Assembly (NCBI GenBank): GCA_039181205.1
Contig: JBCDCS010000001.1
Span: 1-45,256, forward strand
Reading direction: 5' to 3'
Length of the DNA: 45,256 bases
DNA from: Pseudomonadota bacterium
GTDB taxonomy: Bacteria > Pseudomonadota > Alphaproteobacteria > Rhodobacterales > Rhodobacteraceae
Position 1 is the stretch's first letter; each line of letters starts with the position of its first letter. The notes below the pieces were generated by a model, which was not told where the DNA came from, searched no databases, and saw only the letters and a program-made list of their open reading frames with translations. This document shows, piece by piece, positions 9,282-11,684 of this stretch. The position numbers and the translations under genes are program-made.

Positions 9282-10268
9282 CTATGCCTCAGTACGCCCA
9301 CCGACCGCTTGGTAAATCGCATCGATGATGGCTTGCGTTCCCTGAGCATCCTCCAGGGTCCATGGCAGCTTGGCGCCGTCTCGAATGGCCCGGCCAAAGG
9401 CCTCGACCTGCAGGACATAGTGTTCCACACCCGGCCAGCGCCGTTCCTGCCGGGGCCCGTCCTTGCCCCACCAAGTCACGCGCGCCTCGCCGAAGCCCGG
9501 CGGGTTGAAAGGCGACGACATGTGGATGATCCCGGTCTGGCCGTGGAACGTCATCCGTTGATCCAAGGCCATGCGCATGGAAGTTCGCCACTGAGCCGTA
9601 AAGCCCGAAAACTGGGCAGAAACGCGGGCGACGGTGTCGCAGCCGCTCTCCCAATCCAGATGGGCATGGGTGATCTCCTGGGGCTCCTCCCCCGTTGCGA
9701 TCCGGGTGCCACCGATCACATAAACGCCGATATCAGGCAGCGAGCCGCCGCCGGTGGTGGCGCGGTTGCGGATATTTTCGCAGTCGGCCGAATTGTCATA
9801 GGTGAAGACGCCATCCACGTGGCGCAGATCGCCGATGGCGCCTTGGGCCAGCAGGTCTTTGACGAACGTCCATTGGGGGTGATGGGCGATCATATAGGCC
9901 TCGGTCGCGGGCAGGCCGGTCCTGTTCCGGGCGGCGATCAGCGGCGCGATTTCCGGCGCGGACATGGCGACTGGCTTTTCGATCAAGACGGGTTTGCCGA
10001 CGTCCAAGGCCTTGAGGCCCCATTCCACATGGAGCGTGTGCGGCAGCGGCACGTAGACCGCATCGATATCGGGATCAGCGAGGAGCGCCTCGTAGCTGTC
10101 ATGGATCCGGAGACCAGGGGCCAGCGCGACGAAGGGCGTGGCTTTGGCCGGGTCTCGGGTGGCCAGCCCGGCCAGTTTGTGGCCGGGTGTGGCATGGATG
10201 GCGGGGGCCATACTGTTGCGGGCGAATTTCGAGGCGCCCAGGATGCCCCAACGGATCGGGTCGGTCAT
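9282..10268 (-). CDS. Gfo/Idh/MocA family oxidoreductase
   Basis: IRWGILGA, DIDAVYVPLPH, VLIEKP, GGGSLPDIGVY motifs. Start MTDPIR. Confidence 0.92.
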   Translation of the reverse strand: MTDPIRWGILGASKFARNSMAPAIHATPGHKLAGLATRDPAKATPFVALAPGLRIHDSYEALLADPDIDAVYVPLPHTLHVEWGLKALDVGKPVLIEKPVAMSAPEIAPLIAARNRTGLPATEAYMIAHHPQWTFVKDLLAQGAIGDLRHVDGVFTYDNSADCENIRNRATTGGGSLPDIGVYVIGGTRIATGEEPQEITHAHLDWESGCDTVARVSAQFSGFTAQWRTSMRMALDQRMTFHGQTGIIHMSSPFNPPGFGEARVTWWGKDGPRQERRWPGVEHYVLQVEAFGRAIRDGAKLPWTLEDAQGTQAIIDAIYQAVGGRTEA

Positions 10269-10376: not shown

Positions 10377-10667
10377 TCAGCGGCGGAAACCGCCCCGAAA
10401 CCCACCGCGACGGAAGCCCCCGCGCCGGAAACCACCCCGGCGGAAGCCGCGCCGGAAACCCCGGCCCCGGAACCCACCGCGGCGGAAACCGCCCCGACGG
10501 AAGCCACCTCTACGGAAGCGTTCGATCTCGCCCTGCTCGCCGATGGCAGTGTCGATCTCATCGGCGATCGCGTCGACGGGGGCGGCTTTGACCGTGGTCG
10601 CCTGCACCAAAGCGGCGCCGACCAACAGGCTGCCAAACAGGAATCTGCGTCTCGAGATATCGGTCAT
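10377..10667 (-). CDS. Small Tat-signal protein with acidic spacer and Arg/Gly/Phe-only repeat tail (96 aa)
   Basis: MTDISRRRFLFGSLLVGAALVQATTVKA-APVDAIADEIDTAIGEQGEIE-RF(RRGGF)n. AAGGA RBS upstream. Repeat units use different synonymous codons. Confidence 0.82.
   Translation of the reverse strand: MTDISRRRFLFGSLLVGAALVQATTVKAAPVDAIADEIDTAIGEQGEIERFRRGGFRRGGFRRGGFRGRGFRRGFRRGGFRRGGFRRGGFRGGFRR
10380..10520 (-). repeat. Degenerate 15-bp coding tandem repeat (FRRGG)
   Basis: About nine RRGGF-like units with varied synonymous codons. Confidence 0.9.
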
Positions 10668-10804
10668 CGTGTTCGTCCTTCGATCTTTACGGCGGGCGCG
10701 AACATGGCGCCGCCTTCCAAGACAGAAGGTGGGGTGGCGATGCCCTGACCGCACTGAACACCTGGTCACGATCGGGGCAGGGCTTGTGATCTGCGGACGT
10801 CACG

Positions 10805-11170
10805 TCAGGCCCGTTCCTGCACAATAGGTTCGAACCCGCCCCACATCAGGCGCATCCCGTCGAAAGGCATCTCGGACACCTCCATGCCCGGGTCGAAATC
10901 GGGTGACATCATCTTTTCGCCCGCCGCATCATGGGTCGCCTTGTCTGGCCATTCGATCCAGGAAAAGACGACCGTCTCACCGTCCTTGGCCTTCACGGCC
11001 ATCGGGAAGGAGGTGACCTTGCCGTCCGGCACGTTGTCGCCCCAGGCCTCGACCATGGAGAGCGCACCCATGGGTTTGAAGATTTTGTCCCATGCCGCCT
11101 GGGCATGGGCGATGTAGGCCTCTTTGTTGGCATCGGGCACGGCCGCGAGGAATCCACCAAAATAAGACAT
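10805..11170 (-). CDS. DUF1428 (YbaA-like) protein
   Basis: EAWGDNVPDGKVTSFPMAVKAKDGETVVFSWIEWPDK and MPFDGMRLMWGGF. GGAG RBS. Confidence 0.9.
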   Translation of the reverse strand: MSYFGGFLAAVPDANKEAYIAHAQAAWDKIFKPMGALSMVEAWGDNVPDGKVTSFPMAVKAKDGETVVFSWIEWPDKATHDAAGEKMMSPDFDPGMEVSEMPFDGMRLMWGGFEPIVQERA

Positions 11171-11196
11171 GCGACTCTCCTTTCGTTGGGGAAAGG

Positions 11197-11224
11197 TTGA
11201 CAGAGAATTAGTTTGATATCAACT
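11197..11224. promoter_or_regulatory. Putative -35 and MarR operator palindrome
   Basis: TTGACA at 11197 and perfect palindrome TTGATATCAA (11213-11222) between divergent DUF1428 and marR. Confidence 0.55.
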
Positions 11225-11231
11225 CATTTCT

Positions 11232-11684
11232 ATGACGCGCCCCTTTCCCATGACTGCCGATGTCGCTGGACGCTGCCTCTGCTTTCGCACGCAGCGCGCG
11301 GCGCGGGTGCTGGCGCGGCGGTTCGATACGGTGTTCCGGCCCTTCAATCTGACGAACGGGCAGTTCTCGCTTCTGATGTCGCTATACCGGCCAGAGGCGC
11401 CGACAATGTCCGACGTGGCGCCGTTTCTAGGTATGGACCGGTCGACCCTGACGGCGGCGCTGAAGCCCCTGGAACGCCGGGATCTTCTTGAGGTCACGGT
11501 GGACAAAGAGGACCGGCGGGGACGGCGCCTGCATCTGACGGCGGCTGGACTGGCGTTGCTGGAGCGAGCTTATCCGGTCTGGAAGGCGGAGCATGATCGT
11601 CTGGATGCGGCGTTGGTGGCGCTGGATGCGGCGATCGACCCGGATGGGCTGCGGATCGGGGTGGAGGCGTTGGGGCGGACCTGA
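11232..11684 (+). CDS. MarR-family transcriptional regulator
   Basis: CLCFRTQRAAR, LTNGQFSLL, MDRSTLT, EDRRGRRLHLT wHTH pattern. Confidence 0.92.
   Translation: MTRPFPMTADVAGRCLCFRTQRAARVLARRFDTVFRPFNLTNGQFSLLMSLYRPEAPTMSDVAPFLGMDRSTLTAALKPLERRDLLEVTVDKEDRRGRRLHLTAAGLALLERAYPVWKAEHDRLDAALVALDAAIDPDGLRIGVEALGRT

Follow-up and report, generated by a model that had tools for sequence, protein, structure and literature searches.

A predicted exported Arg/Gly/Phe-tailed peptide gene and a motif-linked peptide array in a Rhodobacteraceae genome

A small three-part gene on the minus strand

The window analyzed here, a 45,256-nucleotide stretch of contig JBCDCS010000001.1 (assembly GCA_039181205.1; family Rhodobacteraceae), carries on its minus strand a 96-residue ORF (P0002) in which a predicted signal peptide, an acidic spacer, and a tail built of Arg, Gly, and Phe follow one another (Table 1). 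The signal holds the twin-arginine motif SRRRFLF at residues 5 to 11 and a V-K-A|A site at residues 26 to 29, the spacer is free of Lys and Arg, and the tail has one Phe every 4 to 5 residues. The AAGGA ribosome-binding site (RBS) is separated from the ATG by 8 nt, and the end of a conserved 41-nt upstream motif lies 83 nt from it. An earlier note on this DNA, made from the letters alone, had described the ORF, the RBS, SRRRFLF, V-K-A|A, and the spacer and tail counts, and all of these proved correct; the strand, which it left unstated, is minus. Its reading of the synonymous-codon variation among the FRRGG repeats as protein-level selection also agrees with our counts: all six FRRGG units are distinct as DNA (3.2 differences per 15 nt on average), and 43 of the 48 pairwise differences among them fall at third codon positions. 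A run of at least four consecutive [GRS]1-4F units was unique to P0002 in the six frames of the 3.09-Mb source assembly (G000; 78% complete).

Table 1. Coordinates of the peptide gene, its parts, its context, and the linked array in the source genome
Feature	Position	Strand	Remarks
P0002, 96-aa ORF: signal peptide, acidic spacer, Arg/Gly/Phe tail	10377..10667 (10667→10377)	minus	
Predicted Tat-type signal peptide, aa 1-28	10584..10667	minus	Sequence and profile comparison
Twin-Arg motif of P0002 signal	10635-10655	minus	
Acidic spacer of P0002	10521..10583	minus	21 aa, net −7, low-confidence helix
P0002 tail	10380..10520	minus	47 aa (20 R, 17 G, 10 F)
AAGGA ribosome-binding site	10676..10680	minus	Conserved in 4/4 orthologs
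41-nt motif 5′ of P0002 gene	10751..10791	minus	Common to the G000 C102 peptide array
Inverted repeat TCACR-N14-YGTGA within the 41-nt motif	10766-10789	minus	
Gfo/Idh/MocA oxidoreductase gene (gfo)	9282..10268	minus	Context, downstream; 108 nt past the P0002 stop
DUF1428 gene and divergent MarR gene	10805..11684	minus (DUF1428), plus (MarR)	Context, upstream
C102 array (L087) in G000	C102:5947-5729, 5520-5302, 5091-4969	minus	

Conservation of the coding frame

A protein search recovered full-length orthologs with 69% identity from two of the 33 other genomes of the genus (G009 and G014), and the gene order marR/DUF1428/peptide/gfo/exoD is common to these two and G000. The start position is conserved among the orthologs, which are 95, 96, and 99 residues long and whose tails vary in length by whole repeats; repeat order and number drift, while composition and Phe spacing stay. 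Over 52 nonrepetitive codons of the three orthologs, the P0002 frame had the lowest dN/dS of the six frames (0.38, 0.39, and 0.40, compared with 0.55 to 3.76 in the remaining five), a constraint that, on three sequences, appears moderate rather than strong. The antisense RRKPP frame, whose conservation the earlier note had named as a finding that would count against its reading, gave dN/dS values of 0.55 to 0.85 versus ~0.39 and has a stop at its start in G014; the dN/dS comparison ruled out both this frame and an opposite-strand A/E/P/T-rich frame as the true gene. Since the start, the RBS, the frame-preserving indels, the upstream motif, and the lowest dN/dS all point to the P0002 frame, the ORF is, by comparative sequence evidence, a real, conserved coding gene, and the three-part gene of the earlier note is borne out by syntenic orthologs in which frame, start, and RBS are conserved. 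An unexpressed shadow ORF or a decaying gene would be compatible with the restriction of the family to 4 of the 34 genomes of the genus and with a moderate dN/dS of 0.39 over 52 codons in three sequences, but with all of the above features sharing one frame, we consider it the least probable of the readings weighed here. A scan for sigma-70 promoters and terminators gave no useful result, a PDB sequence search with P0002 returned no matches, and the ESM Atlas yielded merely unnamed clusters (0.85 to 0.91), short of the bar for a shared feature.

Locus history and the Tat-type signal

The neighboring gfo gene is present in 31 of the 34 genus genomes, and the peptide gene was found by tblastn at 3 of the 30 gfo loci compared. 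A single-gene Gfo tree placed the three carriers in a clade (100/100) sister to G049 (98/92). At the same rpoH-gfo position, G049 has an ORF of 100 residues that shares the RBS and the upstream motif; its signal has no twin Arg, and its Arg/Phe/Ser tail is degenerate. Both the DUF1428 and MarR genes are missing from this spot. A remote homolog, P0140, is also without RR. The proteins of G000, G009, G014, and G049 and P0140 are homologs by profile comparison, because a tail-free HMM of the G049 protein and P0140 scored the three RR orthologs at 20.6 to 22.7 bits and all else at ≤6.7 bits. The window family (P0002 and its orthologs) is therefore counted in four of the 34 genus genomes (G000, G009, G014, and G049). 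At 18 of the 30 congener gfo loci (L027, L028, L047, and others), the peptide gene's place upstream of gfo is taken by the gene for an 89-aa Cys4 protein, which we take to be a DksA/TraR-type zinc finger; the G000 assembly had no match to this protein.

The accessible text of PMC6708511 gives as Tat criteria an S/T-R-R-x-F-L motif before the h-region, a signal of ~30 residues, a basic c-region residue, and an A-x-A site, along with Sec-avoidance features. The P0002 signal, with 28 residues, a basic c-region residue, and an A-x-A-type site, fits this description. The twin-Arg motif is SRRRFLF in G000, G009 and G014 both have PRRAFLF, and the G049 ortholog and P0140 are without such a motif. All three RR orthologs combine the RR pair with the next Phe and the c-region Lys, and both RR-less homologs have none of the three. 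With cleavage sites set by hand, a Lys was located within the final 8 signal residues in 3/3 RR orthologs, 0/2 RR-less homologs, and 0/6 peptides of the array described below. TatC scored above the cut-off in all three genomes tested. Curated Tat-signal models did not match P0002 (Pfam, E ≤ 0.1; NCBIfam, E ≤ 1); our own N-terminal HMM retrieved 19 RR-bearing N-termini of longer proteins from 400 other genomes of the order, several of them presumably SoxC, TRAP-binding proteins, and MsrB. Motif, c-region Lys, cleavage motif, and the presence of TatC together support the Tat-type signal that the earlier note had assigned in the source genome. Because the fourth ortholog (G049) and the remote homolog (P0140) are without the twin arginine, Tat routing seems to be derived in G000, G009, and G014. 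We infer a Sec-to-Tat signal switch in the ancestor of these three genomes, to which RR loss elsewhere is the alternative.

The cationic cargo was expected to be disordered, and AlphaFold modeling agrees (pTM 0.21; no predicted secondary structure beyond residue 53), which sets it apart from the folded cargo usual for Tat. The earlier note had regarded a disordered Tat cargo as an oddity. The predicted disorder stands, but the oddity is reduced, as the G049 ortholog and P0140 have no RR and unstructured FG repeats of 100 to 120 residues are tolerated by Tat according to the accessible text of PMC6708511.

A cytoplasmic RGG-type nucleic-acid binder, with an N-terminus that is not a working signal, would make sense of the tail in another way. 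RGG/GRG repeats with Phe, such as those present here, are typical of RNA-binding, phase-separating tracts. We nevertheless judge this reading highly improbable: the hydrophobic N-terminus and an A-x-A-type site are conserved in all five homologs, RR, Phe, and the c-region Lys co-vary, and the N-terminal HMM finds RR-bearing N-termini.

Spacer charge and the antimicrobial layout

Spacer and tail charges in the three orthologs are −7 versus +20, −7 versus +21, and −6 versus +19. The P0002 spacer offsets 7 of the 20 tail charges, about a third, and the predicted mature peptide has a net charge of +13. A look-alike protein from genome G124 has a spacer of net charge 0 before a near-identical R/G/F tail, and look-alike spacers range from −5 to +2. 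With 7/20 charges offset and a neutral look-alike spacer, a neutralizing propiece appears unlikely, and the proposal that the peptide is held neutral by its propiece was not sustained. Positive charge directly after a signal peptide blocks export, and the first 18 mature residues had a net charge of ≤0 in 26 of 32 proteins of signal-spacer-tail layout (cleavage sites set by hand). We infer that keeping the mature N-terminus export-competent is a simpler explanation of the spacer, whose sequence is poorly conserved across the five window-family homologs, than neutralizing a tail of threefold charge.

In its order of signal, anionic piece, and cationic C-terminal peptide, P0002 has the layout of eukaryotic antimicrobial pre-pro-peptides of the defensin and frog-skin type as these are commonly described. 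It differs from them in its unbalanced charges (−7/+20), the absence of Cys and of a predicted tail helix, and a bacterial export route; no processing enzyme was seen, and the charge balance commonly expected of such precursors was absent from all three orthologs. We therefore weighed, and consider unlikely, an antimicrobial pre-pro-peptide whose acidic piece would mask the tail until a protease frees a membrane-active or DNA-binding toxin against competing microbes. Beyond the layout and a tail charge of +20 over 47 residues, this reading gains from the multi-copy, lineage-restricted occurrence of small exported peptides, which is typical of antagonism genes, and an invariant array spacer motif (ETVxDQEL, below) could be a processing site. 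Against it, the spacer offsets about one-third of the charge, and look-alike spacers lie between −5 and +2; neither locus was seen to contain a dedicated transporter, protease, or immunity-like gene; and the tail is one-third glycine with no helix predicted. Freeing the toxin in the periplasm of the producing cell would, moreover, be expected to expose that cell's own membranes to it.

An upstream motif shared with a second peptide locus

Alignment of the upstream DNA of the orthologs revealed the conserved inverted repeat TCACR-N14-YGTGA. The bare pattern was not enriched in the genome (12 matches versus 2 to 13 for other spacings), and two of its matches pointed to contig C102 of G000. An array on this contig comprises two 72-aa genes (Sec-type signal, acidic spacer, and Lys/Phe tail) and then a 40-aa gene for a tail-less signal peptide, adjoined on one flank by a LysE/RhtB-type gene and on the other by a gene that we take to be ispH-like. 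The four arrays (L087, L078, L079, and L080) have two copies of the Lys/Phe gene each, or three in G049; the tail-less 40-aa gene is conserved in all four, its motif site is among the strongest, and the array spacers have an invariant ETVxDQEL motif. Arrays were found in 4 of the 34 genus genomes, a set identical to that of the window family (G000, G009, G014, and G049), and in none of 400 other genera. In a relaxed layout scan of 103,198 ORF starts in the genome, only the P0002 gene and the two array genes were convincing by eye among 28 rows.

A matrix built from the eight non-G000 sites ranked the four G000 peptide genes 1 to 4 of 6.15 million positions (44.8, 43.3, 26.5, and 19.8 bits, compared with a control maximum of 22.1 bits), at 74 to 83 nt from the starts. 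This test is inflated by orthology, and matrices were therefore cross-trained between the loci. The matrix from the seven array sites only placed the window site first among nontraining positions (17.3 versus 16.1 bits), and that from the four window-locus sites only put two array sites at the top (23.4 and 22.0 versus 17.5 bits); the margin is small in one direction, at 1.2 bits. A stricter pattern matched 16 times in the four genomes, at 14 distinct sites, and its reversed control matched once. Ten of the 14 sites precede these peptide genes, and the remaining four, located within other coding sequences, were taken as chance. Outside the clade, the pattern occurred at chance level (five single matches in 400 other genera versus three control matches). 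Homology ahead of the tail was not detectable between P0002 and the array peptides (≤6.7 bits). Judging from the common motif, the P0002 gene and the three array genes would be co-transcribed under one regulator, although the motif could instead reflect promoter descent.

Several candidates for this regulation were rejected. CenR is a Rhodobacter envelope two-component system with a TGA-N8-TGA direct repeat upstream of its regulon, according to the accessible text of PMC9275681; this repeat was found on neither strand in any of 11 motif sites (exact match within the 41-mer). The neighboring MarR is an unlikely regulator, because G049 has the motif but no marR at the locus. Co-regulation with an exopolysaccharide cluster on contig C10 was set aside as well: the G000 site scored 16.4 bits, inside the control range, where 6 matches exceeded 15 bits, and the site of the G009 ortholog reached only −6.4. 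The C10 cluster itself (L086:2403-6526) resembles XrtA/PEP-CTERM systems and includes genes for a priming glycosyltransferase, a PrsT-like TPR protein, an ATPase, a chain-length protein, and a tyrosine kinase, all below cut-offs. A separate short palindrome, TTCATGATGAA, lies upstream of the glycosyltransferase gene and is conserved in G000 and G009.

The array also bears on whether these are envelope signaling or regulatory peptides in which the signal/spacer, anchored or released, is the active part and the tail merely holds the peptide at the surface. The presence of a tail-less, 40-aa signal-plus-spacer gene with one of the strongest motif sites in 4/4 arrays, the invariant array spacer motif, and the loss of a regular tail in the G049 ortholog would all fit such a role. 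It is nonetheless distinctly unlikely, given that the five homologs of the window family agree poorly in their spacers, that no receptor or two-component gene was seen beside the array, and that the tails show clear compositional selection.

Comparison with triceptide precursors

The best nonorthologous full-length match to P0002 was P0004 (42% identity over 96% of the query), which adjoins a GrrM/OscB enzyme (465.8 bits; cut-off, 310). Like P0002, GrrA/OscA precursors (TIGR04260; maturase GrrM/OscB, TIGR04261) have a signal, often twin-Arg, an acidic leader, and Gly-rich repeats with a Phe every 4 to 5 residues. They differ from P0002 in tail charge (+2 to +13 versus +20), and P0002 has neither the aromatic-x-Asn nor the RADxL-type leader motif; a maturase was found neither nearby nor in the four genomes. 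TIGR04261 matched in none of the four genomes (G000 and G014 are 78 to 79% complete). The seven radical SAM matches in G000 best fit the non-RiPP families MiaB, MtaB, RimO, RlmN, HemN/HemW-type, and PA0069, and MNIO (PF05114) was present in one of the four genomes. Among SPASM matches in the other genomes, that in G014 had no small precursor seen beside it, that in G049 was below the cut-off, and that in G009 sits in what we take to be a nir/heme d1 cluster.

Aromatic-x-Asn was the majority form in 17 of 18 GrrA-like proteins, in line with the triceptide core motif Trp/Phe-x-Asn(Asp) given in the accessible text of PMC11002830, and was found in 0/10, 0/11, and 0/10 cases in the ortholog tails, which have no Asp either. 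A GrrA-leader HMM scored the window-family N-termini at 10.9 to 15.0 bits and unrelated Tat controls at 7.8 to 20.2 bits, with the match confined to the signal region, and P0002 matched neither TIGR04260 nor any other NCBIfam model. Triceptide membership is ruled out by the missing maturase, the missing aromatic-x-Asn, and a leader likeness limited to the signal; the chance that a maturase was overlooked in incomplete assemblies is small. Very unlikely, too, is an orphan RiPP precursor whose aromatic-X-X repeats would be cross-linked or modified in trans, as by GrrM/OscB on GrrA/OscA. The P0004 match with its adjoining enzyme and the dominance of Tat signal, acidic leader, and Phe-repeat proteins among short profile matches point in this direction, and other triceptides include aromatic-to-Arg cross-links (accessible text of PMC11002830). 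These points are countered by the lack of a TIGR04261 match in four genomes, the non-RiPP radical SAM matches, the lack of aromatic-x-Asn, a leader score no better than that of Tat controls, and MNIO in a single genome.

Among the GrrA/OscA-like proteins themselves, a twin-Arg precursor lies beside a GrrM/OscB enzyme at L055:6001-7579, and the profile search returned ~17 comparable precursors that bear signals, mostly twin-Arg ones, and FRNGG repeats. P0004, the only such precursor scanned, scored under the TIGR04260 cut-off.

Look-alike proteins and other known systems

Protein searches returned numerous small proteins in which a short spacer connects a Sec-type signal to an R/G/aromatic tail, with Alphaproteobacteria and cyanobacteria as named sources; none of those scanned reached a Pfam or NCBIfam cut-off. 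About 60 short proteins from the profile search were inspected, and the long proteins heading it were set aside, as the three examined matched mainly via the repeat region. Back-translated pattern scans of the genome collection found look-alikes only. The G124 look-alike (L128:1453-1821), from another genus of the family, was the sole match among 400 other genera and has a 60-aa tail with 23 R, 19 G, and 12 F. Two other Sec-signal R/G/F-tail look-alikes, L053 and L054, came from two Caulobacterales genomes.

The look-alikes (for example, P0005, P0164 to P0167, L053, L054, and L128) share with P0002 the three-part layout and near-identical GFRGRG-type tails. They differ in having spacers that are mostly near neutral, in the absence of the twin-Arg motif (0 of 24 tabulated), and in showing no pre-tail homology to P0002. 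The upstream motif scored −6.7, −10.7, and 11.8 bits at three look-alike loci, the last of these (L054) within background. The resemblance of P0002 to this class may be of convergent origin.

Plant glycine-rich cell-wall proteins (Pfam GRP, PF07172) are loosely comparable to P0002 in being secreted, of low complexity, rich in Gly and in basic and aromatic residues, and thought to be structural; P0002 scored 17.7 bits against this model (E = 0.006; cut-off, 30), a match that is compositional. Mussel foot proteins, commonly described as cationic-aromatic adhesives, are similar in composition, but the P0002 tail has no Tyr/DOPA, and the likeness does not extend to demonstrated homology. No description of the family or of the upstream motif was found in the open-access literature covered. 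The P0002 family is an uncharacterized, lineage-restricted variant of secreted low-complexity cationic peptides. With respect to Tat and the propiece, it is plainer than the earlier note proposed; its membership in a motif-linked set makes it more interesting.

A candidate polycation of the envelope or matrix

Our preferred, though tentative, reading is that P0002 is an exported, disordered polycation of a motif-linked set that binds or cross-links polyanions of the envelope or biofilm matrix. The four small signal-peptide genes would be transcribed jointly under one regulator, and P0002 would be exported over the inner membrane, likely by Tat in the source genome. Predicted cleavage of residues 1 to 28 would yield a 68-aa product of net charge +13, with the nonbasic spacer mainly keeping the start of the mature chain export-competent rather than neutral. 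Arg, or Lys in the array peptides, may then pair with phosphate, carboxylate, or sulfate groups, and a Phe every 4 to 5 residues may provide cation-pi cohesion, giving an adhesive or coacervate-like layer.

A material-like role rather than that of a lock-and-key ligand is suggested because composition and Phe spacing persist while repeat order and number drift. The Lys/Phe peptides of the same genome, which have the same layout and motif but no pre-tail homology, also count for the preferred reading. In an analogous case, an increase in positive charge has been proposed to strengthen holdfast adhesion when ionic strength is high (accessible text of PMC8449245); the holdfast is a polysaccharide and P0002 a peptide, so that the likeness is one of analogy only. 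Other results count against the preferred reading. A type II secretin was above the cut-off in only two of the four genomes, the exceptions being G000 (78% complete) and G009. The degenerate G049 tail and the conserved tail-less 40-aa gene are unexplained by a pure tail-as-glue model, and the hint of co-regulation with the exopolysaccharide cluster failed (16.4 bits in the control range; −6.4). Of the roles that the earlier note had offered for a secreted cationic peptide, the matrix or adhesive one is favored, and the antimicrobial one is without genomic support (no transporter, protease, or immunity-like neighbor seen).

A bolder version, which we regard as speculative and rather doubtful, is that a four-species regulon of tiny exported cationic-aromatic peptides coacervates with envelope or host polyanions as a bacterial underwater glue. 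If true, the glue regulon would unite a tail-less partner with Lys/Phe forms in tandem and an Arg/Gly/Phe form whose export had moved from the Sec to the Tat route, and it would be the first defined case of a large unnamed class of alphaproteobacterial peptides that are exported and form condensates. Many alphaproteobacterial hypothetical proteins combine a signal peptide with an R/G/aromatic tail, and the scans run found no family model for them. The set described here offers several handles on this class: a promoter motif defining four genes, naturally occurring tails of the Arg/Gly/Phe and Lys/Phe kinds to compare, and a signal that likely switched from Sec to Tat ahead of a disordered cargo. 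Should the peptides prove to condense extracellular polyanions, phase-separation chemistry would extend to the bacterial envelope or matrix, and minimal adhesive sequences would be on offer. The peptides are short enough for synthesis, so that the main question is directly testable.

A further family of small signal-peptide proteins, ~50 residues long with a conserved NTKFP motif and unrelated to the motif-linked set, was observed in tandem on contig C191 of G009 (L125:1964-2449) and as two matches in G000 (C89:8959-8813 and C28:4293-4228).
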